Origin: Myxococcota bacterium
GTDB lineage: Bacteria; Myxococcota_A; UBA9160; SZUA-336
NCBI GenBank assembly: GCA_035499075.1
Contig: DATJZN010000024.1
Coordinates: 19,549 to 83,548 of the forward strand
Length of the DNA stretch: 64,000 nt
Reading direction: 5' to 3'
In this document: positions 6,795 to 59,777 of the stretch, piece by piece
How positions within the stretch are numbered: the first letter of the stretch is position 1
How the letters are laid out: every line of letters starts with the position of its first letter
The notes under the pieces: model-generated
What the model was told of the DNA's origin: nothing
What the model saw: the letters and a program-made list of their open reading frames with translations, nothing else
The model's database searches: none
Made by a program: the position numbers and the translations under genes

Positions 6795-8024
6795 ATGAAC
6801 CCACTCGGCGTCCATTCGGAAGTCGGAAAGCTGCGGACGGTCCTCGTCTGCCGGCCGGGACTTGCGCACCAGCGCTTGACCCCGGGCAACTGCAAGGACC
6901 TCTTGTTCGACGACGTGCTCTGGGTCCAGGAGGCGCAGAAGGACCACTACGACTTCGTGCTGAAGATGGAGCAGCGCGGCGTCGAGGTGCTCGACCTGCA
7001 CGACCTGCTCGCGCAGACGCTCGAGGCGAAGGACGCGCGCGCGTTCGTGCTCGACCGCCGCGTGACCGCGAACTCCGTCGGCCTGGGCACGGCGCGCCTC
7101 ATGCGCCCGTGGCTCGACGAGATGCCGGCGAAGCAGCTCGCGGAGCACCTGATCGGCGGCGTCGCGATCTCGGACTTGCCGGAGGCGGCGGTCCGCCTGC
7201 ACCTCACCGAGGCGTTCGGCGACGACGAGTTCCTGCTGCCGCCGATCCCGAACACGCTGTTCCAGCGCGATCCGTCGTGCTGGATCTACGGCGGCGTCAC
7301 GTGCAATCCCATGTACTGGCCCGCGCGCGCGCCCGAGACGCTGCTGCAGCGCACCGTGTACAAGTTCCACCCGCGCTTCCGCGACGCGGGCTTCCCCATC
7401 TGGTGGGGCGATTCGGACGAGGACTTCGAGAACGCGTCGTTCGAGGGCGGCGACGTCATGCCGATCGGCAAGGGCGTCGTGCTCGTGGGCATGGGCGAGC
7501 GCACCACGCGGCAGGCGGTCTTCCAGGTGGCGCAGGCGCTCTTCAAGGGCGGCGCGGCTTCGCGCGTGGTCGCGTGCCTCATGCCGCAGAGCCGCGCGGC
7601 GATGCACCTGGACACGGTGTTCACGTTCTGCGATCGCGACGTGGTGACGCTCTTCCGCGAGGTGGTGGACCAGATCCGCTGCTACAGCGCGCGGCCGACG
7701 AACGGCGACGGCGAGTTCGAGGTGCACGCGGAGACGAAGCCGCTGACCGAGGTCGTGACCGAGGCGCTCGAGCTGCCGAAGCTGCGCATCGTCGAGACCG
7801 GGGGCAACGCCTACCAGGCCGAGCGCGAGCAGTGGGACGACGGCAACAACGTGGTGGCGCTCGAGCCCGGCGTCGTCGTCGCCTACGACCGCAACACCTT
7901 CACCAACACGCGCCTGCGCAAGGCCGGCATCGAGGTCATCACCGTCCGCGGCTCCGAGCTGGGCCGCGGCCGCGGCGGCGGCCACTGCATGACCTGTCCG
8001 ATCTCGCGCGATCCCGCCTACTGA
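6795..8024 (+). CDS. arcA: Arginine deiminase
   Basis: Begins [30 protein letters not shown] and ends with the catalytic-Cys region [13 protein letters not shown]. The long ORF in the track (6072..8024) is an upstream extension. The internal ATG was placed by frame arithmetic. Confidence 0.9.
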
Positions 8025-20558: not shown

Positions 20559-20566
20559 GGCGATTC

Positions 20567-24094: not shown

Positions 24095-24139
24095 GGGGAA
24101 TGGATCGTACTTCGCGCGGGCGCGCGGTAGAGTCGTCGC

Positions 24140-25390: not shown

Positions 25391-25435
25391 CCGGTCCGCG
25401 CGGGCCTGAGATATCCTCGAAGGGCGGAGGCCGGG

Positions 25436-26038
25436 TTGGATTTCCATCGGATCTTCGATCGATTTCGCAGCGGGCGCTCGCGCAACCGCGGCGTCCGCCG
25501 CGCGTCTCCGCGGCCGCGTGACTCGCGCACCGACACCGAGTTCGTGCACACCGGGCCGCCGAGCTACCCGCCGCTCGCGCCGAGCCACCCGCCCGTGCCG
25601 CCGGTCGCGCCGCCGCCGGTCGCGCCGCCGCTGCCGGAGCCCGTCGTGCCGCGCGCCGCTCCCGCGCAGCCGGCGCAGCCCGCGAGCGACGCGGGGGCCA
25701 CGCGCATCCTGTCTCTGCCGGTGTCCGCCCAGGGCGCCGTCGCCGCCGTGTTGATCTGCATCGAGGGCAAGCTCGAGGGCGAGGTGTACAAGGTGCGCGA
25801 CGGCGAGAACCGGCTCGGCCGCGCGCCGGGCGCCGAGATCCGCCTCGACGACCGCGACGAGACGGTCTCGCGCGAGCACGCGCTCATCATCCACCGCGAC
25901 GGCGCGTTCGGCATCAAGCCGCTCAAGACCGACAACCCCACGTTCGTGAACGGCGAGGAAGTCGAGGGCGGCGCCTCGCTGTCGGACGGCGACCAGATCC
26001 GGGTCGGCCGCAGCACCTTCCGCTTCCGGGTCGCGTAG
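25436..26038 (+). CDS. FHA-domain protein
   Basis: C-terminal FHA fold: RLGRAPGAEIRLDDRDETVSREHALIIHRDGAFGIKPLKTDNPTFVNGEEV...IRVGRSTFRF. The N-terminal half is Pro-rich and low-complexity. Confidence 0.7.
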   Translation: MDFHRIFDRFRSGRSRNRGVRRASPRPRDSRTDTEFVHTGPPSYPPLAPSHPPVPPVAPPPVAPPLPEPVVPRAAPAQPAQPASDAGATRILSLPVSAQGAVAAVLICIEGKLEGEVYKVRDGENRLGRAPGAEIRLDDRDETVSREHALIIHRDGAFGIKPLKTDNPTFVNGEEVEGGASLSDGDQIRVGRSTFRFRVA

Positions 26039-38513: not shown

Positions 38514-40796
38514 ATGGCGTACACGCAGAAGGACCGGATGTGCCGCATGACGTCGCCGCTGGGCGCCGACGCGCTGCTCGTCCGCCGCATGCGCGTCTCC
38601 GAGGCCGTGTCGAGCCTCTTCACGGTCGAGCTCGAGCTGCTCTCCGAGAGCGACGACCTGTCGTTCGACGCGATCGTCGGGAAGCCGGTCTCGATCTCGG
38701 TCGAGCTGAACAACAAGAAGCCGCGCTGGTTCCACGGCCTGGTGTCGCGCTTCGCGCACGGCGGCGCGAAGGGCCGCTTCGTGGCGTACCGCGCCGAGGT
38801 CGTGCCCACGCTGTGGAAGCTGACGCGGCGCTCGGGCTGCCGGATCTACCAGCACGTGTCGGTGCCCGACATCGCGAAGAAGCTCTTCACCGAGCTGGGT
38901 GTCACCGAGGTGCGCCAGGACTTCGCGAAGTCGTACCCGGCGCTCGAGTACTGCGTGCAGTACCGCGAGAGCGACTTCAACTTCGTGTCGCGCTTGTTCG
39001 AGGACGTGGGCATCTCGTACTTCTTCGAGCACGGCGAGAAGGCCGACACGCTGGTGCTGTTCGACTCGCCGCACGGCAACGCGCCGTGCCCGGGACAGGC
39101 GACCGCGATCTACGCCACCGCGTCGGACGCGGGCGGCACGTCGGGCGAGGTCAGCGAGTTCCACGTCGAGCGGCTGTTGCGCGCGGGCAAGTACTCGCAC
39201 ACGGACTTCAACTTCGAGCAGCCGAGCCTGTCGCTGCACACCACGACGCCGAGCTCCATGGGCATCGGCGGCAACGAGCAGTTCGAGATCTACGAGCACC
39301 CGGGCACGTTCACGCTGCCGCCGCAGGGCGAGTCGCGCGCCAAGACCCGCATGGAGGCGGAAGAGAGCGCGTCGCTCGAAGCGCGCGGCACGAGCCGCTG
39401 TGCCGCGTTCACGCCCGGCTATCGCTTCGACCTGCGCGGCCACCACCGCAAGGACACGAACGACGCTTGGGTGCTCACGGAAGTCGTGCACGAAGTGGTC
39501 GACAGCGTCGACCCCGAAGACCAGGGGAGCTACGAGAACACCTTCGTGTGTCGGCCGCACAGCGTGCCGCTGCGGCCGCTGTGTCGGACGCCCAAGCCGA
39601 TCATCTACGGCGTGCAGACGGCCACGGTCGTCGGCGCGGCGGGACAGGAGATCGACGTCGACCCGCACGCGCGCGTGGTCGTGCAGTTCCACTGGGACCG
39701 CGAAGGCAAGCGCGACCAGAACAGCTCGTGCCGCGTGCGCGTAGCGCAGAACTGGGCGGGCAAGGGCTGGGGACTCATCGCGCACCCGCGCATCGGCCAG
39801 GAGGTGATCGTCGAGTTCGTCGAGGGCGACCCCGACCGGCCGATCGTGACGGGCCGCGTGTACAACGGCGAGCAGACCGCGCCGTACGGGCTGCCCGCGA
39901 ACTCGACGCAGACGGGCATCAAGACGCGCAGCTCGCCGGGCGGCGGCGGCTTCAACGAGCTGCGCTTCGAGGACAAGGCGGGCAGCGAGCTCTTGTACGT
40001 TCAGGCGCAGAAGGACCGCTCGACGCTCACGAAGAACGACGACTCGCAGGAGGTCGGCCACGACCGCACGCGCAAGGTGGTGAACGACGAGAAGGTCGCG
40101 ATCGGCGCCAACCAGAACATCGACGTCACGTCGAACCGCACGCGCACCGTCGGCGCGGACGAGTCCGTGACCATCGGCTCGAACCGCACGAAGAACGTCG
40201 GCGCGGACGAGAGCTCCACGATCGGCGCGAACTACACGCAGTCGGTCGGCGGGAGCCGCACGCGCAGCGTCATGGGCGCCGAGACCGTCACCGTCGCGCT
40301 CGCGCGCACGCACACGGTCGGCGTGAACGAAGCCATCAGCGTCGGCGCCGCGCAGGAAGTCACGGTGGGCGCGGCGCGGACCGTCACCGTGGCGGGTTCG
40401 CAGACCACGAGCGTCGGCTCGTCGCACACCGTGACGGTCGGCGGGAAGCAGGACGTGAACGTCGGCGCGGACCGCGGCCTCACGATCGCCGGAAAGCACG
40501 GCGTGAAGGTCGGCGCCGACGAGTCGGTGAACATCGGCGGGAAGCACCTGGTCGAGGTCGCTTCGGACCGCGGGCTGAAGGTCGGGGGCGATCTCACCGA
40601 CGACGTCGGCGGCAACTACATCGCGAAGTCGGGCAAGGCGATCACGATCGGTGCTTCGGACGAGATCGTGCTCGAGGCGGGCAGCGCGAAGATCACGCTC
40701 TCGAGCAACGGCGACATCACGCTCGAGGGCAAGCAGATCAACGTGAAGGGCTCAGGGAACATCGTGCTGAAGGGCCAGAAGATCCTCGGGAATTGA
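38514..40796 (+). CDS. vgrG: VgrG (TssI) spike protein
   Basis: gp27/gp5-like N-terminus (RFHGLVSRFAHGG...YRAEVVP), an OB-fold, and a C-terminal beta-helical repeat region (VGADES.TIGSNRT... repeats). Confidence 0.9.
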   Translation: MAYTQKDRMCRMTSPLGADALLVRRMRVSEAVSSLFTVELELLSESDDLSFDAIVGKPVSISVELNNKKPRWFHGLVSRFAHGGAKGRFVAYRAEVVPTLWKLTRRSGCRIYQHVSVPDIAKKLFTELGVTEVRQDFAKSYPALEYCVQYRESDFNFVSRLFEDVGISYFFEHGEKADTLVLFDSPHGNAPCPGQATAIYATASDAGGTSGEVSEFHVERLLRAGKYSHTDFNFEQPSLSLHTTTPSSMGIGGNEQFEIYEHPGTFTLPPQGESRAKTRMEAEESASLEARGTSRCAAFTPGYRFDLRGHHRKDTNDAWVLTEVVHEVVDSVDPEDQGSYENTFVCRPHSVPLRPLCRTPKPIIYGVQTATVVGAAGQEIDVDPHARVVVQFHWDREGKRDQNSSCRVRVAQNWAGKGWGLIAHPRIGQEVIVEFVEGDPDRPIVTGRVYNGEQTAPYGLPANSTQTGIKTRSSPGGGGFNELRFEDKAGSELLYVQAQKDRSTLTKNDDSQEVGHDRTRKVVNDEKVAIGANQNIDVTSNRTRTVGADESVTIGSNRTKNVGADESSTIGANYTQSVGGSRTRSVMGAETVTVALARTHTVGVNEAISVGAAQEVTVGAARTVTVAGSQTTSVGSSHTVTVGGKQDVNVGADRGLTIAGKHGVKVGADESVNIGGKHLVEVASDRGLKVGGDLTDDVGGNYIAKSGKAITIGASDEIVLEAGSAKITLSSNGDITLEGKQINVKGSGNIVLKGQKILGN

Positions 40797-40803
40797 GGGG
40801 AAC

Positions 40804-41322
40804 ATGGGCGAAGAGACGGATCTCCCAGCGCAGATCGAAATCGTGCTCGGCGACTTGGCCGGCGGGCTCGAGACGGCCGCGGAGCCGCTGCCGAAGGCGG
40901 ACGGCGTGGTGCTCGGCCGCCTCGTCGCGTTCCGCGAGGACGGCGCGCCCCTGGTGCACTTCGAGGGCTGCGCCGATGGTGCGCCGGTGGCGGCGCTCGT
41001 CGTCGGCTCGCTCTCCGACGATGACGTCGGTGCCGACGTCGCGCTCGCGCTCGCTGCCGGCGACGCCCGCCGGCCCGTGGTGCTCGGCCGCACGCGCGCC
41101 GCGATTCCGGCGGCCGAACGCGCACGCGCCGCGTCGCCGCTCGAGACCAGCGCAGACGGCCAGACCGTGGCGCTCACTGCGGGGCGGCAGCTCGTGCTGC
41201 GCGTGGGGCGCGCGACCATCACGCTCACACAGGACGGCAGGATCGTGATCCGCGGCGGTCAGCTGGTGAGCCGCGCCTCGGGCGTGAACCGCATCCAGGG
41301 CGGCTCGGTCCAGATCAACTAG
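40804..41322 (+). CDS. Hypothetical VgrG-associated protein
   Basis: 172 aa, sitting immediately 3' of vgrG. The C-terminus TITLTQDGRIVIRGGQLVSRASGVNRIQGGSVQIN resembles spike beta-helix repeats. No known catalytic motif was found. Confidence 0.4.
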   Translation: MGEETDLPAQIEIVLGDLAGGLETAAEPLPKADGVVLGRLVAFREDGAPLVHFEGCADGAPVAALVVGSLSDDDVGADVALALAAGDARRPVVLGRTRAAIPAAERARAASPLETSADGQTVALTAGRQLVLRVGRATITLTQDGRIVIRGGQLVSRASGVNRIQGGSVQIN

Positions 41323-41333
41323 TCGGCTCGCCC

Positions 41334-42386
41334 GTGAACCTGCAGAACTTCACCCCCTTTCCGGCGGAGATCACGCTGGCCACCGACAAGGACGGCCGCG
41401 ACTCGTATCTCGTCGTCGTGAAGGGGACGTTCGAGATCGGCGACGGCGAGCCGCGTCCCGCCGCGGAGCAGGTGCCGTTCTTCTACGGCGACCAGCACTA
41501 CGGCGACCCCGAGACCACGAGCATCAAGTACGAGAGCGAGTTCGCGCCGGTGAAGTCGCGTGCCGACGTGGTGGTGGTCGGCGACGCCCACGCGCGCGGC
41601 CGCGGCGTGCGCAGGCTCTCGGTCGAGGTTCGCGTCGGACGCATGCGCAAGAAACTCATCGTACGCGGCGACCGGCGCTGGCGCTTCGGACTCGGGATTC
41701 TGTCGCGAGTCAGTTGGGCGCGGCGCTTCGAGTCACTCCCGATCGTGTACGAGCGGGCCTTCGGCGGCGCCGACACCTCGCACGACAACCCGAAGCGGCA
41801 CCGCTTCGAACGGCGCAACCCGGTCGGCACCGGCCTCGTGCGCCGCCTGCGCGCGAAGGGCGCGCTGCCGAACTTCTACTATCCGGGCGAGTCGTTGCGC
41901 CGCCCGGGCAAACGCATCCGGCCCGCGGGCCTCGGCTTCGTCGGACGCGGCTGGGAGCCGAGAGCGAGTCACGCGGGAACGTACGACGGGGCGTGGAAGA
42001 AGGAGCGCTTTCCGCTGTTGCCGGAGGACTTCGACGACGAGTACCACCAGGGCGCACCGCCGGACCAGCGCTGCGAGCTGCTGCGCGGCGGCGAGCCCGT
42101 CGAGCTGCGCAACTTGACGCCCGACGGTCGCCTGTCGTTCCGGCTGCCGCCGCTGGCGCTGGCGATCCGCTTCCGCTTCGCGAGCCGCACCGAAGAGAGC
42201 GTGATGTACGGCGACACGCTCATCCTCGAGCCCGGCCTCGGCCGCTTCCAGGTCGTGTGGCGTGCGTCTCGGCCCGTCGACGGGAAGCTGCTCGCGCTCG
42301 GCGAGGTGTGGATCGGCACGCCCAGCCGCGGGCGCCTGCTCGCCGTAGAGACGCGCAAGCAATACATCGACCGGAGCGCGCGGTGA
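41334..42386 (+). CDS. DUF2169-family T6SS effector adaptor
   Basis: The N-terminus MNLQNFTPFPAEI...VVVKGTFEI is typical of DUF2169 proteins. Position downstream of vgrG and upstream of a PAAR-like effector matches the known adaptor context. Confidence 0.6.
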   Translation: MNLQNFTPFPAEITLATDKDGRDSYLVVVKGTFEIGDGEPRPAAEQVPFFYGDQHYGDPETTSIKYESEFAPVKSRADVVVVGDAHARGRGVRRLSVEVRVGRMRKKLIVRGDRRWRFGLGILSRVSWARRFESLPIVYERAFGGADTSHDNPKRHRFERRNPVGTGLVRRLRAKGALPNFYYPGESLRRPGKRIRPAGLGFVGRGWEPRASHAGTYDGAWKKERFPLLPEDFDDEYHQGAPPDQRCELLRGGEPVELRNLTPDGRLSFRLPPLALAIRFRFASRTEESVMYGDTLILEPGLGRFQVVWRASRPVDGKLLALGEVWIGTPSRGRLLAVETRKQYIDRSAR

Positions 42387-43417
42387 GCGCGGTCGAAGTC
42401 CAGGCCGCGGGGCTCGTGACCGCCGTGGGACTCACCGCGGCCGCGTCCGCCGCCGCGCTGCGCGCGCGGATCATGCGCTTCCGCGAGACGCCGTTCCTCG
42501 ACGCCGGCGGCTCTCCCGTGATCGGCGCGCCGATCCGCGGCATGGCCGACGGCGAGCTGGGCACGCAGCGCCTCGCGACGCTCTTGTGCGCCGCGCTCGA
42601 CGACGCCGCGCGACAGCTCGGCGAGCCGATTCCCGACGGCACGCCGCTCGTCCTGGGCCTCGCCGAACGCGAACGCGCGGGCCGGCCGCCGGGGCTCGAG
42701 TCGCAGCTCGCCGACGCGATCGTCCGCGACGCGGGCTGGCGCTTCGACGAGGCGACCTCGTCCGTCGTCGCAACAGGAAACACGAGCGGCGCGCGCGCTT
42801 TCGAGCTGGCGCGGCGCGTGCTCGAGCGCGGCGCGCCACGCGTGGTCGTGGCGTGCGTCGATTCGTTCTTGAACGCGCCGGCGCTCGCGCAGCTCCAGGC
42901 CGCGGAGCGGCTGAAGAGCGAAGACGACCCCGACGGTGTGATTCCGGGCGAAGCGGCGGGCGCCCTGGTGCTCGGCGCTGCGCTCGACGGCGCGCGGAGC
43001 CGCGCGCGCCTCGCGGTCGCGGGCGCCGGCTTCGCGCGCGAGAGCGCTGCCGCGGACCGCGCGCGACCGAACACGGGCGTTGGCCTCGCGGCCGCGATCC
43101 GCGCGTGTCTCTCGGACGCGCGCGCGGGCACGCGGAACACCGACTTCCGGCTGAGCGACGTGAGCGGCGAGCGGCGCGCGTTCGTCGAGACCCAGTACGC
43201 GATGAGCCGCACCCTGGCCGAGTCGCACGCGGACTATCCGCTGTGGCTGCCGGCCGAGTCGTTCGGCGAGATCGGTGCCGCGAGCGTGCCCGCGCAGCTC
43301 GCGGTCGCCGCGGCGTCGTTTGCGAAGGGCTACGCGCCCGGCCGGGCAGCGCTGTGTCAGAGCGGCTCCGCGGACGGCGACCGCGCCGTCCTCTTTGCGG
43401 TGGCGCTGGCGGGCTGA
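42383..43417 (+). CDS. Thiolase-fold, beta-ketoacyl-synthase-like protein (possibly catalytically degenerate)
   Basis: The GTG start overlaps the DUF2169 stop. A KS-like Cys context VVACVDSF is present. The KS His motif appears replaced, with SFGEIGAASV where KS enzymes have GHxxGAAG. 344 aa. Confidence 0.45.
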   Translation: MSAVEVQAAGLVTAVGLTAAASAAALRARIMRFRETPFLDAGGSPVIGAPIRGMADGELGTQRLATLLCAALDDAARQLGEPIPDGTPLVLGLAERERAGRPPGLESQLADAIVRDAGWRFDEATSSVVATGNTSGARAFELARRVLERGAPRVVVACVDSFLNAPALAQLQAAERLKSEDDPDGVIPGEAAGALVLGAALDGARSRARLAVAGAGFARESAAADRARPNTGVGLAAAIRACLSDARAGTRNTDFRLSDVSGERRAFVETQYAMSRTLAESHADYPLWLPAESFGEIGAASVPAQLAVAAASFAKGYAPGRAALCQSGSADGDRAVLFAVALAG

Positions 43418-44415
43418 TGGGCAACGACGTCTACGCGAACAACATGAACGTCGCCTGCAAGGCGGGCGACGGAAAGGTGATCTGCGCGTTCCCCGACGTG
43501 TGTCTATCGCCGCCCACGCCGCCTGCGGGTCCGATCCCGATTCCCTACCCAGTCACTTCCATGTCGAGTGATACGACCGACGGATCGGGCACCGTCACCG
43601 TGAACAACAAGGAGGTCATGCTCAAGGACAAGTCGTGCTACTCGAAGTGCACGGGCGACGAGGCGGCGACGAAGACGCTGGGCATGGGCGTCGCCAACGC
43701 GTCGCTCTCCGGAAAGGTGTACTTCAAGATGTGGTCGATGGACGTGCAGATGGAGGGCGAGAACGTCGTGCGCGCCTTCGACATCACCACGTCGAACCAC
43801 ATGAGCGAGGTCGGCAACGCGGCGGTGCCCATGATCAACTCGGAGCGCATGGGCTTCACGCAGCTCGGCGAGTGCAAGGGCGTGAACAAGAAATTCGAGC
43901 TCGTGCCCTACGAGAGCACCAACCCGAGCACCGGCGACAAGGACCTGACGTGCGGGCGCAAGGGGATGACCGGCCACCATCTGATTCCCGGCCGCTGCAT
44001 GAAGACGAGAACCACCGCAGGCGGGAACGCCGCGTATCCGAAGGGCTGCTCTCACGACAAGGCGCCCTGCGTGTGCGTCGACAACGAGAACCAATACGAC
44101 GGCACGCACAAGGAGTGCCACGCCATCTTCGACCCCATCGAGCAGCAAGAGGCCAAGAAGCCGCCCAAGGACCAGATGACGTACAAGAAGGCGCGCGACA
44201 CGGCCGCGGAGTCGGCCGCGGGGATCAACGGCGGGAAGGACCTCACCGATAAGCAGCTCGAGTGCGTGAAGGCGCAGCTCGACAACTACTACAAGAAGTG
44301 CCTCGCGAACCAGGACGGCTCGATCGCGTTGAACTCGCCGCTCAACGCTCAGGCGGACAATTCCGGCCTCGTGTTGCCGAGCACGAGCTCGGTCGGCGGT
44401 CTCGGCAGCCCGTGA
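43417..44415 (+). CDS. PAAR-like (DUF4150) protein with C-terminal Tox-GHH HNH/EndoVII-type nuclease toxin domain
   Basis: The ATG overlaps the upstream stop in CTGATGG. N-terminal DUF4150 signature KVICAFPDVCLSPPTPPAGPIPIPYP. C-terminal GHH motif MTGHHLIPGRCMK plus Cys/His-rich CSHDKAPCVCVDNENQYDGTHKECH. Local GC is lower and the sequence is Lys-rich. Confidence 0.65.
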   Translation: MGNDVYANNMNVACKAGDGKVICAFPDVCLSPPTPPAGPIPIPYPVTSMSSDTTDGSGTVTVNNKEVMLKDKSCYSKCTGDEAATKTLGMGVANASLSGKVYFKMWSMDVQMEGENVVRAFDITTSNHMSEVGNAAVPMINSERMGFTQLGECKGVNKKFELVPYESTNPSTGDKDLTCGRKGMTGHHLIPGRCMKTRTTAGGNAAYPKGCSHDKAPCVCVDNENQYDGTHKECHAIFDPIEQQEAKKPPKDQMTYKKARDTAAESAAGINGGKDLTDKQLECVKAQLDNYYKKCLANQDGSIALNSPLNAQADNSGLVLPSTSSVGGLGSP

Positions 44416-44431: not shown

Positions 44432-45352
44432 ATGGCGAAGAAGCGGAAGCGCGGCGCGCTGTACTTCACGAGCATCGCGCGCGCGGGCGACGACTCCGTC
44501 GCGCTCTCGGGCAACTACTACATCTACGAGGACGGCGACGAGAAGCGCACCGCGCTGATCTCCCTGAAGCAAGGCCACTGGGGCGCGCTCGACGTGTCGG
44601 GCATCGTCCACGCCGCGCGCATCATCGGTACGTTCCCGAGCGGGAAGTGGACCATGCTCGGGCTCACGCAGAGCGGCGGCGTGTATCGGGCGTCGCCGTC
44701 GGGCGTGAAGTTCGCGATGATCGACGAGGAGCGGCCCGGCTCGCTCATGGACCTGCGCCAGATCGGGGGCAAGTGGTACGCGGTCGGCGGGCATCTGCGC
44801 ATCCATCGCGAGGACCGCGCCGGACACTGGACGGCGATCGACGACGACGTCTACCTCGAGGACGAAAAGGGCAACACGAAGCTCCTCTTGAGCATCGACG
44901 GCACCTCGGGCTCGGACCTGTGGACGGTGGGCTACAACGGCACCGTCCTGCATTACGACGGCTCGAGCTGGTCGTCGGTCGAGTCGCCGACCGACTACGG
45001 CCTGCAGCGCGTGCTCTGCCCGAAGAAGGGCGTCGTGTACGTGTGCGGTTACGGGAACTCGCTGTTCCGCCGCAACGCGAAGGGCGGCTGGGATGCGCTC
45101 ACGGAGCCCGACGAAGACATCGTGTTCTGGGACATGGCGTGGTTCCAGGACGAGCTCTACGTGTGCACGAAGAAGGACCTCTTCGTGCTGCGCGACGGCG
45201 AGCTCGAGAAGGTGAAGCCCAAGGTCGACGGGCCGCTCGGCTTCTACCGCATGGACGCCGACGACGGCGAGCTCTGGACGTGCGGCAACGAGTGCGTGCT
45301 CCGCTTCGACGGCAAGAAGTGGAAGCAGTTCGTCTGGCCCGACAACGAGTGA
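44432..45352 (+). CDS. Candidate immunity protein (beta-propeller-like repeat protein)
   Basis: 306 aa with no signal peptide. Repeated blade-like motifs are GHWGALDVSG, GKWTMLGLTQSGGVY, GGKWYAVGGHLRIH, GSDLWTVGYNGTVLHYDGSSW and GELWTCGNECVLRFDGKKW. It lies directly 3' of the toxin. Confidence 0.5.
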   Translation: MAKKRKRGALYFTSIARAGDDSVALSGNYYIYEDGDEKRTALISLKQGHWGALDVSGIVHAARIIGTFPSGKWTMLGLTQSGGVYRASPSGVKFAMIDEERPGSLMDLRQIGGKWYAVGGHLRIHREDRAGHWTAIDDDVYLEDEKGNTKLLLSIDGTSGSDLWTVGYNGTVLHYDGSSWSSVESPTDYGLQRVLCPKKGVVYVCGYGNSLFRRNAKGGWDALTEPDEDIVFWDMAWFQDELYVCTKKDLFVLRDGELEKVKPKVDGPLGFYRMDADDGELWTCGNECVLRFDGKKWKQFVWPDNE

Positions 45353-45353
45353 G

Positions 45354-46592
45354 TCAGGCGCGGCGGTCGCGCGCGAAACACTCGAGCTCGACGTCCGGCG
45401 CGTCGGTGCCCAGCTCGAGACACCGGCGCAGGCAGGCGTCGCGACCGCCCTCCAGGTCGAGCTCCGCGAGCACCTCGCCGAGCGACAGCGCGTCGACGTC
45501 GCGTCCGCGCCGCCAGCGCCGGCGCGGATCGAAGTCACCGCCGCGCTTGCGCCACAGCGCGCGGGCCTCGTCGGCGTCGAACATGGTCGCGTCGACGTCC
45601 TGCACCCGCGCGCGCCCGAGCGCCTCGCCGACGATCGCCTCGAAAGCCTCGGCCGCGGCGGCGGAGAGGTCGGGCACCTCGAGCATTTCCAGGAGCTTCG
45701 GCAGCGCCTGCGGGTCGCCGAGCGCGCCGAGTCCCTGCAGCGCCGCGGGCGCCAGCTCGGGCGAGGCGAGCGCGGCCTCGAGGGCCGGCCGGTCGCTCGT
45801 GGCACCGAGTGCGCCGAGCCAACGCAGCTCGACCGCACGGGCGCGGTCGGGCTGGCGCGCGGAGGCGCGCAGCAGCTCCAGCACCTCGGGCTGGCCCCAG
45901 CGCGCGCCCGCGCAGAGCGCCGCGATCCGGACCTCGGGCGCGGGATCGGCATGGCTCGCGACGAGCTCGCGGCGGTCGGGCGCGGGCCCCACGCGCAGAC
46001 GTACGGCCCAGTGGATCGCGCGCAGCGCCGCCGCTCCGCTCGCGCCGAATGCGGCGACGAGCCCGTGCGGTACCTCACGCCGGTGGAACGCGAGCGCGTC
46101 GGCCCAGACCGCGCGCTCCAGGTCCGCGGGCCCGTCCAGCCGCTCGCGCGCTTCGGCTTCCCAAGTCGACACCGAACAGTGTCGCAGTCCGTGACGCGCG
46201 CCCGCCGCGGCGGGCAGGGCAGCCCCGCGCAGCGCTTGGGCCACGGCACCCGGGTCGGGAGTCGGCCGTCTCAACAGCGTCCAGGCGCCCGCGGCGACGA
46301 GGCTCCAGGCGTCGGACCCGAGCGCCGCGCGAGCCAGCGCCGCGCCCGTCACGCCGCCTTCGAGCAGGCCGTCCAGGTGCGCCTCCATGCGGTCCTCGTG
46401 CCGGCGCAAATGCAAGGGGCGGAAGCCCGCGCGGAAGATCGACGTCTCGCGCAGCTCCCACAGGAAGTCGAGCTCCGCAAGGTGCTCCTCGAGCACGTCG
46501 GCCAGGACGGGCGGCTCGGACGAGGGCACGCCGTCAGCGCACCGCGGCCTCGATCCGCTGGCGCAGCGGATCCGCCAGCCGCGGCAGCGCAT
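45354..46592 (-). CDS. HEAT-like (PBS-lyase type) repeat protein
   Basis: Repeats of the type LRWLGALGATSDRPALEAALASPELAPAALQGLGALGDPQALPKLLEML. The exact start is uncertain; a GTG near 46526 would avoid overlap with the upstream gene. Confidence 0.5.
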   Translation of the reverse strand: MRCRGWRIRCASGSRPRCADGVPSSEPPVLADVLEEHLAELDFLWELRETSIFRAGFRPLHLRRHEDRMEAHLDGLLEGGVTGAALARAALGSDAWSLVAAGAWTLLRRPTPDPGAVAQALRGAALPAAAGARHGLRHCSVSTWEAEARERLDGPADLERAVWADALAFHRREVPHGLVAAFGASGAAALRAIHWAVRLRVGPAPDRRELVASHADPAPEVRIAALCAGARWGQPEVLELLRASARQPDRARAVELRWLGALGATSDRPALEAALASPELAPAALQGLGALGDPQALPKLLEMLEVPDLSAAAAEAFEAIVGEALGRARVQDVDATMFDADEARALWRKRGGDFDPRRRWRRGRDVDALSLGEVLAELDLEGGRDACLRRCLELGTDAPDVELECFARDRRA

Positions 46593-47289
46593 CGAGGTCG
46601 ACGAGCTCGATGAACGCGGGCACGCCCGAGAAGCGCGTCGCTTGCGCGATGAGCTCGTCGCTGGGTCGGAAGGCCGGTACCGCCGAGCGCAAGGTGACGA
46701 GCGGCAGCTCGCCGAGCGACTCGCGCTTCTCGATCACCACGTCGTAGCGCAGCTCTCGGAACAGCTCGCCGATCTCGGGCAGCCCGACGAGGAGCTGTTC
46801 GAGCACCAGCGCCGACAGCACGAACTGCCGCGCGTCGCTCGGGCGCAGCGAGGCGCGGTTCGCGAGCGCAGCTTCGAGCTGCGCGAGCGTGTAGCCCGAG
46901 CGGAACGCGATCGCCCAGCGCGCGGGATCGGTGATCGCGATCGTGCGGCCGTCGCTTTCGAGTGTATGGGCGTACTCGAACGGGAACACGTCGAGGATCG
47001 GCTCGACCGAGAGCGGCTCGTCGTCGAGCTCCTTGGGCAGGTTGAACGGGCGCCCGCAGGCAGCGAGCCAGCGCTCCTTCAGCCGGGCCAGCGCGCGGTC
47101 GGCGCCGGGCACCTCGTCGCGGCCGCCGCCCCGCACGTGCCGGCCCAGCAGCCGGCGGGGGGAAAGCACCGGCCGCAGCGCCTCCAGCTGGGCGGCCAGG
47201 CGCTCGCGCAGGAGCTTCGCCACCGTTTCGGTCTTCGCGCGCATGCGGGCCAGCTCGTCGATCGTGAGCGGGCGTCCGGGGTCGCTCAT
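46534..47289 (-). CDS. Hypothetical protein
   Basis: A 250-278 aa ORF in the track (46534..47370). The start is either at MSDPGRPLTIDELARMRAK (47289) or at 47370. No recognisable domain. Confidence 0.4.
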   Translation of the reverse strand: MSDPGRPLTIDELARMRAKTETVAKLLRERLAAQLEALRPVLSPRRLLGRHVRGGGRDEVPGADRALARLKERWLAACGRPFNLPKELDDEPLSVEPILDVFPFEYAHTLESDGRTIAITDPARWAIAFRSGYTLAQLEAALANRASLRPSDARQFVLSALVLEQLLVGLPEIGELFRELRYDVVIEKRESLGELPLVTLRSAVPAFRPSDELIAQATRFSGVPAFIELVDLDALPRLADPLRQRIEAAVR

Positions 47290-47391
47290 GGGGAGTTCAC
47301 TCCGCGGCCACGCTATCGCTGCGGGCTTGCGCGGGTCAAGGCTTCTTTCGATTGACCCCGGCGGAGGCATTCATCCATACTTCGCGCGGAG

Positions 47392-53796: not shown

Positions 53797-55161
53797 GTGG
53801 CCGCGCGCCTGGTCGAGCTCCGCGGCGGCCGCATCGCGTCGGAGCGCCGGCTCGGCCGCCGCGAGGTCGTGCTCGGCCGCGCTCCGTCGTGCGACGTCGT
53901 GCTCGACGACCCGCGCGTGTCGCGCGAGCACGCGCGCATCGACGCGAGCGAGGGCGAACACCTGCTCGTGGACCTGGGCAGCCGCAACGGCACGCGCGTG
54001 AACGGCCAGCCGGTCACGCGCGCGGTCGCGCTGCGCGACGGCGACCTCGTGCAACTCGGCGACGCGGTGTTCCGCTACGAGCTCGAAGCGGGGGCGCGGC
54101 CGCGCACCGCGCTGTGGCTCGGCGTAGCGGCGGCCGGAGTGATCGCGCTGGCGGCAGGCTTGTTCTTCGCGCTGCGCAGCGACCCGGTGCTGCGTCAGGC
54201 CGCGGAGACGGCGCGCGCCGCCGTCGAGGCCTCGCAGAAGGGCGACGCCGCGCGCGGGCGCGACTTGCTGCAGGACGCGGTCGCGCAGCTCTACCGCGCG
54301 GGGCGGCTCGACGACGTGCCGCGCCTGCACGCGCGCGAAGAGGGCCTGCAGCGGCTCGGCCAGGCGCTGGGCGGCGGCGTCGACCTCGTCGCCCTCTACC
54401 GCGCGGACGTCGAGCGCGGGCGCGCGCGCCAGGTGTCGGCTGCGCCGCCGCCGGGCCGCGGTCCGTGCCGGCTCGACGAGATCGCCGCCGCCGACCTCGA
54501 CGTGTGCGTGCGCGAGCGCGCCGAGGCGATCCTCGTGGGGCTGTGGCAGGACCCCGCGAAGGTGCCCGACTCGTTCTACCGGCAGGTCGAGGACCAGCTC
54601 TTGTTCCTGCTGCGGACGAATCGGCCGTGGGTCGCGTCGTCGCTCGCGCGCGGCGAGAAGCTCGAGCCCCTGCTCGTGCGCGAGCTCACCGCCGCGAAGG
54701 TACCGCCGCAGCTCCGCTACCTGGCCATGATCGAGAGCGGCTACAACCCGAACGCCGCCAGCGGGGCCGGCGCGCGCGGTCTGTGGCAGTTCATCCCGTC
54801 GACGGCGCAGCGCTACGGGCTCGTGGTGTCGGGCTCGGTCGACGAGCGCCTCGACCCCGCGAAGTCTACGCGCGCGGCGGCGCGCTACCTGTGCGACCTG
54901 GCGTTCGAGTTCGGCGACGAGGCGCTGCTGCTCGCCGTCGCGTCGTACAACAAGGGCGAGGGCGGCATCCGCTCCGCGCTCCACAAGCTCGACGACCCGC
55001 GCACGGAGCGCTCGTACTGGGTGCTCGCGCAGCGCGGGCTCCTGCCGGCCGAGACGCGCGACTACGTGCCGCGGCTCATCGCTGCCGCGGTGCTGGGCGA
55101 GGCGGGCGTGCCTTCGGAGGCCGCGCTCGCGGAGCGGCAGACCGCCTCGGCGCATGAGTGA
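53797..55161 (+). CDS. FHA domain, TM, lytic transglycosylase (SLT domain) fusion protein
   Basis: N-terminal FHA: VVLGRAPSCDVVLDDPRVSREHARI...NGTRVNGQPV. Transmembrane segment LWLGVAAAGVIALAAGLFFAL. C-terminal SLT motifs LAMIESGYNPNAASGAGARGLWQFIPSTA and ...SYNKGEG. Confidence 0.7.
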   Translation: MAARLVELRGGRIASERRLGRREVVLGRAPSCDVVLDDPRVSREHARIDASEGEHLLVDLGSRNGTRVNGQPVTRAVALRDGDLVQLGDAVFRYELEAGARPRTALWLGVAAAGVIALAAGLFFALRSDPVLRQAAETARAAVEASQKGDAARGRDLLQDAVAQLYRAGRLDDVPRLHAREEGLQRLGQALGGGVDLVALYRADVERGRARQVSAAPPPGRGPCRLDEIAAADLDVCVRERAEAILVGLWQDPAKVPDSFYRQVEDQLLFLLRTNRPWVASSLARGEKLEPLLVRELTAAKVPPQLRYLAMIESGYNPNAASGAGARGLWQFIPSTAQRYGLVVSGSVDERLDPAKSTRAAARYLCDLAFEFGDEALLLAVASYNKGEGGIRSALHKLDDPRTERSYWVLAQRGLLPAETRDYVPRLIAAAVLGEAGVPSEAALAERQTASAHE

Positions 55162-57022
55162 GCCGGGGCGCCGGCTCGCGCGGCTCGCCTGCGCGCTCGC
55201 GCTCCTCGCCGCGGCCCCCTCGCGCGCGGGCGACGCGTCGTGGCGCGGGCTGGACGAACGGTCCGACCAACACAATTCGGTGTACACTCGGAAGTCGTTC
55301 TACGTGGAGATGCGCGACGGCACGCCGATCGCCGTGGACCTGTGGCTGCCCGAGGGCGCCGGCGAGTCCGCGAAGCTGCCGGCCATCCTGCGCCAGACGC
55401 GGTACTGGCGCTCGGCGCAGCTCCGGCTGTTCGTGCGCCCGTTCCGCGGCGGACCGGAAGAGCTCGCGAAGCGCTTCCTGGCGCGCGGCTACGCGTGGCT
55501 CGACGTCGACGTGCGCGGCTCCGGCGCTTCGGGCGGCGTGCAGCGCTCGCTGTGGGCCGACGACGAGGTCGAGGACGGCGGCCAGCTCGTCGACTGGATC
55601 GTGCGCCAGCCGTGGTCGAACGGGCGCGTGGGCGCGCTGGGCGATTCGTACGACGGCACGGCGGCGGAGCTGTTGCTCGCTGCGGGTCGGCCGGCGGTGC
55701 GCGCCGTGGCGCCGCGCTTCTCGCTCTTCGACGCGTACACCGACATCGCATTCCCCGGCGGCGTGCGGCTGGTCTGGTTCACCGACACCTGGGGCCGCCT
55801 CGATGCCGCGCTCGACCGCGGCGAGCTGCGCCGCGCGTTCCCATGGTGGGTGCCGCTCTTCGTCATCGGCCCGCGCCCGGTCGACGGCCCCGGCGCGGCC
55901 GACGCGCTCGCCGCCGCGCAGCGCGCGCACGCCGACAACTTCGACGTGGCGCACGCCGCGCGCGAGGTCGAGTACCGCGACGACGTCGCGCCCGAGCTCG
56001 GCGGCTCGACGAAGGACTTCAGCCCGTGCTGCGGCCGTCGTGCGCGCATCGAGGCCTCGGGCGCGGCCGTGTTCGGCACGAGCGGCTGGTGGGACGGTGC
56101 GTATCCGCGCGCGGCGGCGCGGCGCTTCCGCAGCCTGGCGAACCCCGGCGGCCGGCTATTGCTCGGCCCGTGGAACCACGGCGGCGACCAGGCGCTCGAT
56201 CCGCTCCAAGCGACTCGCGCGAGCGAGTTCGACCACGCCGCCGAGCTGTTGCGCTTCTTCGACTTCCACCTGAAAGGCGTCGCCAACGGCTGGGAGCGCG
56301 AGCCACCCGTGCACTACTTCACCACGGGCGAATCGCGCTGGAAGAGCGCCGCGAGCTGGCCGCCGCCCGCGCACGTGCAGCCGCTCTGGCTCGCCGAAGG
56401 GCACGCGCTCGCGAGCCGGGCGCCGGCCGAGGCCGCCGCCGCGGACGAATGGCGCGCCGATCCCGAGAGCCGGACCGGCACGTCGAGCCGCTGGCGCGGC
56501 CTGACCGTGCCGACGTGGACCGAGTACGGCGACCGCGCGGACGCGGACCAACACAATCTAGTGTACGACTCGGCGGCGCTCGAGGCCGACCTGGAAGTGA
56601 CGGGCCATCCCGTCCTGCACCTGTGGCTGCGCGCCGACGGCCCGGACGCCGCGGTGTTCGCCTACCTGGAGGACGTCGACCCGAAGGGCCGGGTCGGCTA
56701 CGCGACCGAGGGCTGGCTGCGCGCGCGCGACCGCAAGCTGGGCCCCGACGCCGAAGCTCCGTACGCCCTGCTCGCTCCCTATCATTCTTTCGCGCGCGCC
56801 GACGCCGCGCCCCTCGCCGCGGGCGAGCGCACCGAGCTCGTCTTCGACCTGCTGCCCCTCTCGCACCTGTTCCGGCGCGGCCACCGGATCCGCCTGTCGC
56901 TGGCCACCTCCGACCGCGACCAGTTCGACGCCGTGGCCGGCGCCGCCTCGACCCTGTGGCTGGAACGCAGCGCGGGCGCGGCGTCGCGGCTCGAGCTGCC
57001 GGTGGCCGACCGCAGCCCGTAG
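55154..57022 (+). CDS. CocE/NonD-family (S15 X-Pro dipeptidyl-peptidase-like) alpha/beta hydrolase, secreted
   Basis: Signal peptide LARLACALALLAAAPSRAG. Nucleophile-elbow-like GDSYDG. About 620 aa, with the beta-sandwich C-terminus typical of this family. Confidence 0.7.
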   Translation: MSEPGRRLARLACALALLAAAPSRAGDASWRGLDERSDQHNSVYTRKSFYVEMRDGTPIAVDLWLPEGAGESAKLPAILRQTRYWRSAQLRLFVRPFRGGPEELAKRFLARGYAWLDVDVRGSGASGGVQRSLWADDEVEDGGQLVDWIVRQPWSNGRVGALGDSYDGTAAELLLAAGRPAVRAVAPRFSLFDAYTDIAFPGGVRLVWFTDTWGRLDAALDRGELRRAFPWWVPLFVIGPRPVDGPGAADALAAAQRAHADNFDVAHAAREVEYRDDVAPELGGSTKDFSPCCGRRARIEASGAAVFGTSGWWDGAYPRAAARRFRSLANPGGRLLLGPWNHGGDQALDPLQATRASEFDHAAELLRFFDFHLKGVANGWEREPPVHYFTTGESRWKSAASWPPPAHVQPLWLAEGHALASRAPAEAAAADEWRADPESRTGTSSRWRGLTVPTWTEYGDRADADQHNLVYDSAALEADLEVTGHPVLHLWLRADGPDAAVFAYLEDVDPKGRVGYATEGWLRARDRKLGPDAEAPYALLAPYHSFARADAAPLAAGERTELVFDLLPLSHLFRRGHRIRLSLATSDRDQFDAVAGAASTLWLERSAGAASRLELPVADRSP

Positions 57023-57141
57023 CCTGCAGGTGAGGCCCTGCAGTGCCGGCCGGGCTCTGCACTCCAGCCCGCGCGGAGCCCGCCAAGCCCGCCCCGCTGC
57101 ACGAGAATTGCGGCATGCCGCTTGCTCGAGGGGGGAGCCGG

Positions 57142-58383
57142 ATGAAGCGCCGAACTACAATTCCAGGTGCCGCCATCGGGGTCTCGACCGGACTCCTGCT
57201 CGGCGCGCTGAGCTCGTGCGGGGTGGAGCGCATGCCTCACGACTGGGACGAGTGGAAGAAGTGGAAGGGACGGCACCGCTACGGCCGGCCCGATTGGAGC
57301 CGTTCCGGCCGCGGCGACTGGAGCCGCCCGGGCCGCATGCGCTCGGAGCGCGACGACGAGCGCGAGCTCGAGCGCGCGTCGCGGCGCGAGCGCCGCCGCC
57401 GCCCGCCGCTCACGCCCGAAGAAGAGGCCTACCGCGAGGCGCGCCGCGCCGCCGAGCGCAAGCTCGCGTTCTTTCGCCACCTCGTCCCGTACGTGTCCGT
57501 GGTGCTGTTCCTCACGGTCGTCGTCGGCCGCTTCGTCGGCGCCGTGGTCGCGCTGTCTTGGGGCATCGGGCTCGCGTCGCACTACTTCCAGGCGTTCGTC
57601 GCGCCGGGCCTGCGCCAGAAGTGGGTGCGCGCCGAGGTCGAGCGCCAGGTCGCGCGCACCGTGTCGCGCCAGCGCGTGGTGCTGGAAGACGAGAAGCTGC
57701 GCTCGCTCGAGGAGCTGTCGGCCTCGATCGCCCACGAGATCCGCAACCCGATCACCGCCGCGAAGAGCCTCGTGCAGCAGCTCGGCGAGGACCCGAGCTC
57801 CACCGAGAACGTCGAGTACGCGAACATCGCGCTGCAGGAGCTCGACCGCGTGGAGAAGTCCATCTCGCACCTCCTGCGCTACGCGCGCGAAGAGGAGATG
57901 CACCCGACGCAGATGAAGCTCGTGGACGCGATCGAGAGCGCGCTCGAGACGCTGCGCGAGCGCGTGCAGGCGGCGAACGTGAAGATCCGCCGCGACTTCG
58001 ACGTGCCGGGCGAGCTCATCGGCGACCGCGAGCAGCTGCGCCGCGTGTTCATCAACGTGATCGGCAACGCGCTCGACGCGTTCGCGGACGCGAAGACGCC
58101 GAGCCCGACGCTCGCGATCGGTGTGGGCGAGAACCTGGGCGGCAGCGAGATCTGGGCGCGCGTGAAGGACAACGGCCCCGGCATGGACGCCGATACCCAG
58201 ACGCGCATCTTCAAGCCCTTCTTCACCTCGAAGGCGAACGGCACGGGCCTCGGGCTCGCGATCACCCGCAAGCTCGTCGACGCGCACGGCGGCGCCATCG
58301 AGGTCAGCTCGACTCCCGGTCAGGGCACCGAGTTCACGCTGCACTTCCCGAAGCAGGCGCAGCAGCCGGAGGCGCGGTCGTGA
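57142..58383 (+). CDS. Sensor histidine kinase
   Basis: Start placed at MKRRTT, after a gggggag ribosome-binding site. Two transmembrane segments. H-box SASIAHEIRNPITAAKS. HATPase N/G boxes NVIGNALDA, DNGPGMD and GTGLGLAI. Confidence 0.8.
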   Translation: MKRRTTIPGAAIGVSTGLLLGALSSCGVERMPHDWDEWKKWKGRHRYGRPDWSRSGRGDWSRPGRMRSERDDERELERASRRERRRRPPLTPEEEAYREARRAAERKLAFFRHLVPYVSVVLFLTVVVGRFVGAVVALSWGIGLASHYFQAFVAPGLRQKWVRAEVERQVARTVSRQRVVLEDEKLRSLEELSASIAHEIRNPITAAKSLVQQLGEDPSSTENVEYANIALQELDRVEKSISHLLRYAREEEMHPTQMKLVDAIESALETLRERVQAANVKIRRDFDVPGELIGDREQLRRVFINVIGNALDAFADAKTPSPTLAIGVGENLGGSEIWARVKDNGPGMDADTQTRIFKPFFTSKANGTGLGLAITRKLVDAHGGAIEVSSTPGQGTEFTLHFPKQAQQPEARS

Positions 58384-59777
58384 GCGCACGCATCCTCATC
58401 GTGGAAGACGAGAAGGCGATCCAGCTGGCGCTGCGCGGGCTGTTGCGCCGCGATGGCTACGACGTCGACCTGGCCGACACGGGCGAGGACGCCGTGCGGA
58501 AGCTCGGCGAGGCCGTCTACGACCTGGTGATCACCGACCTCGCGCTCGGCCGCGGCCTGTCGGGCATGGACGTGCTGCGCGCGACGAAGGACGCCCGCGC
58601 CGAGACGGCGGTCGTCATGATCACCGCGCACGGCAGCGAGAAGGTCGCGGTCGAGGCGATGAAGCAGGGCGCCGAAGACTACCTGCCCAAGCCGTTCGAC
58701 AACGAAGAGCTGCGCGTCGTAGTGCGCCACGCGCTCGAGAAGACGCAGCTGCAGCGCGAGAACCGCATGCTGCTCGAGCGGGTGGAGCGCGAGTTCAGCT
58801 TCGAGAACCTGATCGGCCAGGGCCGGGCGATGCGGCAGATCTTCGAGACGATCCAGAAGGTCGCCGAGACCGACCTGTCGGTGCTGGTGCGCGGCGAGAG
58901 CGGCACGGGCAAGGAGCTCGTGGCGCAGGCGCTGCACCAGCGCAGCGCCCGGCGCGCGAAGCCGTTCATCGCGGTGAACTGCGCCGCGATCAGCCGCGAG
59001 CTGGTCGAGAGCGAGCTGTTCGGCCACGAGAAGGGCGCCTTCACGGGCGCCGACGCGCGGCGCATCGGCAAGTTCGAAGCCGCGAACGGCGGCACGATCT
59101 TCCTCGACGAGATCGGCGACATGGCGCCCGAGACGCAGGCCAAGGTGCTGCGCGTGCTGCAGGAGCGGAGCTTCGAGCCGGTCGGCGGGAACCGCGCGGT
59201 GACGGTCGACGTGCGCGTCGTGGCCGCGACGCACCGCGACCTCGAAGCCGAGGTCAAAGCGGGCCGCTTCCGCGAGGATCTCTACTACCGCTTGAAGGTC
59301 GTGGAGATGACCTTGCCGCCGCTGCGCGAGCGGCTCGAGGACGTGCCGCTCCTCGCCCAGCGCTTCCTCGACCAGGTCGCGGAACGACTCGGCCGCGCGC
59401 GCAAGCCGATCTCTGCCGAGGCGCTCGCCCGGCTCGTCACGTGCTCGTGGCGCGGCAACGTGCGCGAGCTGCGGAACGCGATCGAGCGCGCAGCCGTGCT
59501 GGCGTCGGGCGACGAGATCCAGGCCGGCGACCTCGCGCTCGACGGCGAGCCCGCGGTGACGAGCGCCGACCCGCTCGTGCTGCCCGGCGTGCCGTTCCGC
59601 GATGCGAAGCGCCACACGGTGGAGAGCTTCGAGCGCGCCTACCTGATCAAGGCGCTGCGCGAGCACGGCGGCAACGTGTCGCGCACGGCCGAGGCCATCG
59701 GCATGGTGCGCCAGAGCCTGCAGCAGAAGATTCGCGAGCTGGAGCTCCGCTCCGAGGATTGGAGCGAGGACTCCTAG
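58380..59777 (+). CDS. Sigma-54-dependent NtrC-family response regulator
   Basis: The GTG overlaps the kinase stop. Receiver domain LIVEDE...DLVITDL. AAA+ module GESGTGKE with the sigma-54 contact motif GAFTGA. C-terminal helix-turn-helix. Confidence 0.9.
   Translation: MSARILIVEDEKAIQLALRGLLRRDGYDVDLADTGEDAVRKLGEAVYDLVITDLALGRGLSGMDVLRATKDARAETAVVMITAHGSEKVAVEAMKQGAEDYLPKPFDNEELRVVVRHALEKTQLQRENRMLLERVEREFSFENLIGQGRAMRQIFETIQKVAETDLSVLVRGESGTGKELVAQALHQRSARRAKPFIAVNCAAISRELVESELFGHEKGAFTGADARRIGKFEAANGGTIFLDEIGDMAPETQAKVLRVLQERSFEPVGGNRAVTVDVRVVAATHRDLEAEVKAGRFREDLYYRLKVVEMTLPPLRERLEDVPLLAQRFLDQVAERLGRARKPISAEALARLVTCSWRGNVRELRNAIERAAVLASGDEIQAGDLALDGEPAVTSADPLVLPGVPFRDAKRHTVESFERAYLIKALREHGGNVSRTAEAIGMVRQSLQQKIRELELRSEDWSEDS

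Follow-up and report, generated by a model that had tools for sequence, protein, structure and literature searches.

A ketosynthase-fold protein without a catalytic triad in a probable Class II Tvp spike-loading module of a Myxococcota type VI secretion cluster

Introduction

The 64,000-nucleotide stretch analysed here (the window; positions 19,549 to 83,548 of contig DATJZN010000024.1, assembly GCA_035499075.1, from an uncultured Myxococcota bacterium) carries a type VI secretion system (T6SS) gene cluster. Within that cluster lies an island that includes a VgrG spike gene, a PAAR-like toxin gene and, between them, genes for a DUF6484 protein, a DUF2169 protein and a 344-amino-acid protein resembling beta-ketoacyl synthases (KS). 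This KS-like protein is the subject of the present analysis. A first-pass annotation, made from the sequence alone, suggested that it could be a novel chaperone or adaptor, or an enzyme that modifies the effector. All positions are numbered along the whole stretch, which has a guanine-plus-cytosine (GC) content of about 71%.

Organization of the island

Six plus-strand genes run head to tail, encoding VgrG, the DUF6484, DUF2169 and KS-like proteins, the toxin and a 306-amino-acid protein. Two minus-strand genes lie beyond them.

38514-40796, plus strand: VgrG spike protein, 760 amino acids (Pfam Phage_GPD 5e-90, Gp5_trimer_C and Phage_base_V; NCBIfam TIGR03361 5e-182)
40804-41322, plus strand: DUF6484 protein, 172 amino acids (Pfam DUF6484 1e-16)
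41334-42386, plus strand: DUF2169 protein, 350 amino acids, a TvpA-like PAAR chaperone (Pfam DUF2169 2.4e-87)
42383-43417, plus strand: PRK06147 thiolase-like pseudo-ketosynthase, 344 amino acids, GTG start, TvpD-like (NCBIfam NF004798 1.2e-85)
43417-44415, plus strand: PAAR-like (DUF4150) toxin with a C-terminal Tox-GHH2 domain, 332 amino acids, Tse7/PefD-like (Pfam)
44432-45352, plus strand: candidate immunity protein, 306 amino acids (by position)
45354-46592, minus strand: HEAT-repeat/TIGR02270-family protein, 412 amino acids, PA0101-like, inverted (Pfam HEAT_2; NCBIfam TIGR02270)
46534-47370, minus strand: 278-amino-acid open reading frame (ORF), adjoining the HEAT gene on its 5' side and divergent from tssJ

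The first five genes are tightly packed. The DUF6484 gene begins 7 nucleotides past the vgrG stop (40796), 11 nucleotides separate it from the DUF2169 gene, and the next two junctions are a 4-nucleotide GTGA overlap and a 1-nucleotide TGATG overlap. This spacing agrees with the first-pass description of three overlapping or nearly overlapping genes between vgrG and the toxin gene. The identical 344-amino-acid protein is also encoded on an ENA metagenome contig, where an independent gene caller set the same boundaries for the genes of the block. The island is embedded in a complete T6SS cluster, with the genes for TssC, TssF, TssG and ClpV upstream and those for TssJ, TssK, TssL and TssM downstream.

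The middle gene of the block was correctly named as DUF2169. Its domain fills protein residues 21-310 and profile positions 2-294 of 294, and Pfam finds neither a second domain nor a pentapeptide-repeat extension in the 350-amino-acid protein. The toxin combines a Tox-PAAR-like domain (8.8e-29) with a Tox-GHH2 domain of the HNH/EndoVII nuclease type (4.8e-7), both assigned by Pfam, and carries the GHH motif MTGHHLIPG.

Family and fold of the KS-like protein

The 344-amino-acid protein matches NF004798, the PRK06147 model, at 287.8 bits (E 1.2e-85) over profile positions 3-340 of 349. The family is large, comprising 3139 clusters of 50% identity at E<=1e-30, and public annotation pipelines label its members '3-oxoacyl-ACP synthase'. 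An AlphaFold2 model built from 38 homologues reaches a predicted local distance difference test score (pLDDT) of 93.9 and a predicted template modelling score (pTM) of 0.93. Foldseek searches of the PDB with this model return FabF and type II polyketide synthase chains, both KS and chain-length factor (CLF), at the top (E ~1e-19, TMq 0.80-0.83, identity 15-21%). The KS or thiolase fold proposed in the first reading is thereby borne out, at a template modelling (TM) score of about 0.8. When a single sequence is used as the query, the best PDB sequence match is a CLF (E 4e-4). Pfam ketoacyl-synt (PF00109) matches residues 125-197 only, below its gathering threshold (19.4 vs 20.8 bits), and PF02801 (Ketoacyl-synt_C) has no Pfam match in the protein. 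Elsewhere in the family, the 556-amino-acid member P0234 contains a low-complexity insertion of about 200 residues, so that its KS-like fold is matched in three separate stretches.

Loss of the catalytic positions

Alignment to FabF and CLF chains of solved structure, both as a single sequence and as a profile, places the three catalytic positions of KS enzymes as follows, with residue counts taken over 149 family sequences.

Cysteine nucleophile position: N133 (TG-N-TSG), at the N-terminus of helix 132-148, aligned to the FabF cysteine and the CLF glutamine
First histidine position: D259 (LS-D-VSGE)
Second histidine position: E296, or G295 with a one-residue register shift (SFG-E-IGAAS)

At position 133 the family carries H in 58 sequences, R in 27, N in 23, A in 12, S in 10 and Q in 8; none of the 149 has cysteine there. 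D259 recurs in 148 sequences and G295 in all 149, while position 296 is D in 90 and E in 52 (142 in total). D160, E190, D259, G295, D/E296 and G298 are invariant residues at or near the old active site. Since the nucleophile is never cysteine and both histidine positions are replaced, alignment identifies the KS-like family as a pseudo-ketosynthase that has lost all three catalytic positions.

This outcome agrees only in part with the first-pass annotation, which had noted that the GH(S)xGAAG histidine motif seemed to be gone, as D259 and E296 or G295 now confirm, and had also held that a KS-type cysteine context persists in VVACVDSF. The cysteine of that motif, C158, aligns instead to the KS GG(T/S)E motif, where 85 of the 149 family sequences have G, 53 have A and 8 have C, and the true nucleophile position is N133. 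An effector-modifying acyltransferase, also raised in that reading, is disfavoured by the family-wide loss of all three KS catalytic positions.

Conserved gene neighbourhood

A locus scan with a 12-sequence alignment, limited to one genome per species, yielded 72 loci with 75 KS-like units; their sources include Myxococcota, Planctomycetota, Pseudomonas and Rhodobacterales. Hidden Markov models seeded from the window proteins were run iteratively against the six-frame ORFs of the loci. In 64 of the 75 units the immediate upstream neighbour on the same strand is a DUF2169 gene, and in 71 the immediate downstream neighbour is a PAAR-like gene; both neighbours are present in 61, and many of the exceptions fall at contig ends. 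The succession of DUF2169, KS-like and PAAR-like genes is thus near-obligate. The window protein is about 35-37% identical to its Pseudomonas homologues. VgrG and DUF6484 genes precede the unit in roughly two dozen loci.

Two variants of this arrangement stand out. Two Gemmataceae contigs from metagenome-assembled genomes (MAGs) carry tandem DUF2169/KS-like/PAAR-toxin units with different toxins, at 1290-4280 and 4859-8219 in L017 and at 814-3942 and 5016-8026 in L026. Seven loci (L023, L028, L031, L035, L040, L042 and L045), mostly from Myxococcus, Corallococcus and Pyxidicoccus, have the order DUF6484, HEAT/TIGR02270, DUF2169, KS-like and PAAR-like, with no VgrG in the 6-kb flank.

The 306-amino-acid protein encoded behind the toxin has no significant family match in Pfam or NCBIfam. 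Its homologues lie directly 3' of GHH2-type PAAR toxins in six loci (L001, L010, L017, L041, L056 and L063), and this recurrence supports a role in immunity. The protein is therefore a candidate immunity protein, a function suggested by its position.

A DUF6484 protein that imitates the VgrG tip

The 172-amino-acid DUF6484 protein resembles its neighbour VgrG in two stretches. BLASTP matches the motif at the end of its OB-fold to VgrG residues 427-448 (E 0.005); this search returns the OB-fold motif only and does not detect the similarity of the tails. An end-anchored alignment of the last 36 residues of both proteins gives 12 identities and a score of 47, which is the best among all VgrG offsets and is reached by 2 of 100,000 shuffles. 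A single-sequence AlphaFold2 model of the protein (pLDDT 35.5) is unusable, and the DUF6484 profile was searched against PDB sequences. The profile matches solved VgrGs in the same two regions, the OB-fold and the C-terminal prism, at E 2e-8 to 1e-6, with 9mlp_A at 2e-8 and P. aeruginosa VgrG1 at 1e-6. The first-pass impression that this C-terminus mimics the spike is well founded, and in sequence terms the protein qualifies as a mini-VgrG.

DUF6484 tails are strongly conserved as '...SRSSGVNRIKGGSVQIN', whereas VgrG ends in '...KGQKILQN'. By eye, each family keeps its own conserved tail, a comparison that carries no score for cognate against non-cognate pairs. The mimicry of the VgrG tip thus looks generic rather than specific to this locus.

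The HEAT/TIGR02270 gene as a further conserved neighbour

The gene at 45354-46592 (minus strand), convergent with the immunity gene, is a conserved accessory gene that the first-pass annotation missed. It matches Pfam HEAT_2 at 4e-7 and NCBIfam TIGR02270 at 7.5e-21, with 74.6 bits vs a cut-off of 206.8. In 52 of the 72 loci, and in 38 of the 43 full-length ones, the KS-like gene has a HEAT/TIGR02270 homologue no more than 6 kb away.

The 150 best family matches include three fusions. In P0225 and P0235, NCBIfam recognises a full-length PRK06147::TIGR02270 fusion that scores above the TIGR02270 cut-off, and P0216 has a homologous C-terminal extension detected by phmmer only. Liu et al. 2020 (PMC7714669) also report that PRK06147 is fused to TIGR02270 more often than to any other domain (3.8%). 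The adjoining 278-amino-acid ORF (46534-47370, minus strand) matches nothing in Pfam or NCBIfam, and its homologues occur in two loci only (L022, 9048-9740, minus strand; L024, 11916-12677, minus strand).

Comparison with published systems

Both the architecture of this island and the idea of a thiolase-like adaptor or co-chaperone are already in the literature, from 2014 to 2026. PRK06147 has been proposed as a fourth class of T6SS adaptor, with 74.4% of 407 homologues next to DUF2169 (Liu et al. 2020, PMC7714669). The arrangement of DUF6484, DUF2169, thiolase-like, armadillo-like repeat and DUF4150 genes is known as 'synteny type A' (Sachar et al. 2025, PMC11883445) and accounts for 28% of DUF2169 genes (PMC11883445). 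The statement in the first reading that KS-like proteins are not a recognised part of T6SS modules does not hold, since PRK06147 was already described in DUF2169/DUF4150 cargo modules.

The closest described relative is the P. aeruginosa VgrG1b island, whose gene content over PA0095-PA0101 has been reported, with PA0099 identified as DUF4150 plus Tox-GHH2 (PMC7970981, PMC4067218) and PA0098 listed as a 'thiolase-like' gene (PMC7970981). This island consists of VgrG1b, PA0096 (DUF6484/OB-fold), PA0097 (DUF2169), PA0098 (TvpD), PA0099 (Tse7), PA0100 (Tsi7) and PA0101 (HEAT). Compared by family and description rather than by PAO1 sequence, the window has the same seven gene families, the first six in the same order, and likewise a Tox-GHH2 toxin. 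Its DUF2169 protein is single-domain and its KS-like protein matches the same NF004798 model. The two islands differ in setting, as that of the window is part of the main T6SS cluster, flanked by clpV and tssJKLM, and is not a satellite. Moreover, its HEAT gene is inverted with an extra 278-amino-acid gene beside it, and its host is uncultured with about 71% GC.

Monlezun et al. 2026 (PMC13373197) gave PA0098 the name TvpD and predicted that it is a co-chaperone for PAAR in Class II Tvp. In the corresponding AlphaFold model, PA0097 and PA0098 form a groove around the Tse7 PAAR domain on the PA0096 trimer (PMC13373197). The words ketoacyl, thiolase and synthase are absent from that paper (PMC13373197). 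The HEAT/TIGR02270 protein is not part of the published Tvp complex models.

The pef operon of P. mirabilis follows the order hcp-vgrG-pefABC-pefD[PAAR+Tox-GHH2]-pefE[immunity]-pefFG. As in the window, three accessory genes separate vgrG from a PAAR-GHH2 toxin, which is followed by an immunity gene and further genes (PMC5714391, PMC11883445). Unlike the window, it is enterobacterial and starts with hcp, and the families of PefA-C follow a secondary description in PMC11883445. In that organism pefDE alone is insufficient for T6SS killing, while the whole pef operon is sufficient (PMC5714391).

The Class III Tvp of Serratia marcescens (TvpC with DUF3540, TvpAB with DUF2169 and pentapeptide repeats, TvpB, and Paar1) shares with the window a DUF2169 chaperone, a DUF4150 PAAR protein and an OB-fold/beta-prism protein that mimics VgrG (PMC13373197). 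It lacks a KS-like protein and uses pentapeptide-repeat proteins as a 'seat-belt'; its TvpC is of the longer DUF3540 type and its PAAR protein has no toxin domain.

Among proteins of the same fold, FabF and the CLF (KS-beta, actinorhodin 1tqy_B) share the thiolase/KS fold with the window protein at a TM of about 0.8. The CLF, too, lacks the cysteine nucleophile and has aspartate at the first histidine position. The window protein differs from both in being about 60-70 residues shorter and from the CLF in having Asn rather than Gln at the nucleophile position. No KS-alpha partner or acyl carrier protein (ACP) is encoded nearby, and the context is T6SS cargo rather than polyketide or fatty-acid synthesis. 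A functional parallel is TsmK, a separate pseudo-ketoacyl synthase of the Acinetobacter T6SS (A1S_1301, PMC10564176), which likewise keeps a KS fold without the catalytic set and acts as a non-enzymatic T6SS assembly factor (PMC10564176). Set apart from the window protein by description, TsmK acts on assembly of the TssM/TssL membrane complex and is essentially specific to Acinetobacter. Its gene lies in the core cluster, not between DUF2169 and PAAR genes.

A probable Class II Tvp module and its alternatives

Taken together, the locus is very probably a Class II Tvp spike-loading module (DUF2169 'synteny type A', of the VgrG1b-island type) within a complete T6SS cluster, in which the KS-like protein would serve as a scaffold or co-chaperone and not as an enzyme. 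The genomic hallmarks of Class II Tvp are present: an adjoining vgrG, a short TvpC of the DUF6484 type (OB-fold and short beta-prism) instead of DUF3540, a single-domain DUF2169 protein, PRK06147 between the DUF2169 and PAAR-like genes, DUF4150 joined to an effector domain, and a HEAT/TIGR02270 gene, here below the cut-off and on the opposite strand.

By analogy with these systems, the C-terminal tip of the DUF6484 protein would imitate the tip of VgrG, and the PAAR-like domain of the GHH2 toxin would dock first on this surrogate. The TvpA-like DUF2169 protein and the dead, TvpD-like KS-fold protein would then clamp and shield the PAAR domain before the capped toxin is passed on to the genuine VgrG trimer, ready to be fired. 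The 306-amino-acid protein would protect the producer, and the HEAT protein may join the assembly via TvpD. Binding of DUF4150 by DUF2169, which delivery requires, is experimentally established in other species (literature) and may well extend to this locus, as may the pre-complex and a groove like that of PA0097 and PA0098. The first-pass guess of a degenerate-KS chaperone or adaptor thus agrees with the triad loss, the synteny and the published model, while its novelty falls to the earlier publications.

Several points weigh against this assignment. In the literature, the co-chaperone role of TvpD/PRK06147 is a prediction from synteny and AlphaFold models; the TvpD model has a lower confidence (interface score ipTM 0.753; PMC13373197); and that a TvpC pre-complex forms ahead of the VgrG complex is shown by experiment only for Class III of Serratia (PMC13373197). 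The invariant D259 and D/E296 may retain a ligand-binding or other chemical role. Finally, the window protein scores 287.8 bits, below the curated NF004798 equivalog cut-off of 342. All six T6SS-linked homologues compared, from Pseudomonas, Myxococcus, a planctomycete MAG and an unclassified MAG, also score below it, at 275-289 bits, so the cut-off delimits a narrower subgroup. Given these similar scores, the window protein is an equally good member of the broad family, to which it clearly belongs.

The same invariant residues are relevant to a rival proposal, in which the KS-like protein has enzymatic activity (as an acyltransferase, decarboxylase or condensing enzyme, for example) and modifies VgrG, a lipid or the PAAR toxin while loading takes place. 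The complete thiolase/KS fold, modelled with high confidence, would suit such a role, as would the invariant D160, E190, D259, G295, D/E296 and G298 at or near the old active site and the presence of KS/CLF pairs among the closest PDB sequence relatives. However, D160 and E190 belong to the structural motifs GGxE and GEG, which real KS enzymes conserve as well. Position 133, N in the window, varies among H, R, N, A, S and Q without a single cysteine in 149 sequences, and both histidine positions are replaced (D259; E296 or G295), substitutions that mirror the non-condensing CLF, in which Gln stands in for the Cys and Asp for the His. The Pfam ketoacyl-synt match stays below gathering (19.4 < 20.8), and the parts of the window examined contain no ACP, malonyl-transferase or other fab/pks genes. 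An enzymatic function is accordingly improbable. A housekeeping FabF/FabH paralogue placed beside T6SS cargo genes by chance would account for the '3-oxoacyl-ACP synthase' labels of the homologues, yet it fits with neither the lost triad and the FabF identity of just 15-21%, nor the start and stop codons that overlap those of the neighbours and the DUF2169/PAAR-like flanking conserved across phyla. Triad loss and synteny together lead us to reject it, and they likewise exclude the canonical FabH/FabF without T6SS synteny that the first-pass annotation had named as the outcome against its proposal.

A different question concerns partners. The main partner of the KS-like protein might be the HEAT/TIGR02270 protein, instead of or besides DUF2169. 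As a sub-complex, this pair would either dock the loaded spike onto the baseplate or take charge of the toxin domain, and the Class II assembly would have one component more than the published model. The natural single-chain fusions (P0225 and P0235, and P0216 by phmmer), the rank of TIGR02270 as the commonest PRK06147 fusion partner (3.8%, PMC7714669) and the TIGR02270-like gene at most 6 kb away in 38 of the 43 full-length loci point this way, as does the requirement in P. mirabilis for pefF and pefG, located 3' of the immunity gene (PMC5714391). On the other hand, the position and orientation of the HEAT gene vary (after the immunity gene in some loci, upstream of DUF2169 in Myxococcus, inverted here), five of the 43 full-length loci lack it, and the window copy matches TIGR02270 weakly (74.6 vs 206.8 bits). 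On balance, this partnership is conceivable but rather doubtful. A similarly tentative extension, supported by the gene fusions and by the frequent co-occurrence of the two genes (38 of the 43 full-length loci), is that the Class II Tvp model is incomplete: TvpD might work as a unit with the HEAT protein, its old KS pocket, lined by the invariant D259 and D/E296, perhaps repurposed as a site for a partner peptide or small ligand instead of being merely dead.

Significance and wider context

With the Class II Tvp assignment, the window adds a distant, high-GC example of such an island, one embedded in a core T6SS cluster. Its study also contributes family-wide evidence that TvpD/PRK06147 lacks all three KS catalytic residues, and it draws the HEAT/TIGR02270 gene back into view as a possible additional partner. 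The TvpD family stays a reasonable target, though not on account of this window.

Other genes in the window lie outside the island. Upstream of the T6SS cluster are ORFs for an arginine deiminase, an Orn/Lys/Arg decarboxylase and a major facilitator superfamily transporter (6072-8024, plus strand; 18249-21533, minus strand; 22826-25894, minus strand); all three exceed their domain-bearing parts, and the true starts lie further in. Just 3' of tssM, the plus-strand gene at 53797-55161 combines an N-terminal FHA domain and a C-terminal SLT lytic transglycosylase domain in one protein, which may couple post-translational regulation of the T6SS to peptidoglycan remodelling. An S15 X-Pro dipeptidyl-peptidase gene (55154-57022) also lies downstream of TssM. 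Further downstream of the cluster, the plus-strand gene at 57030-59777 encodes a sigma-54 activator that bears both a receiver domain and a Fis-type helix-turn-helix, a possible VasH/Sfa-like regulator.

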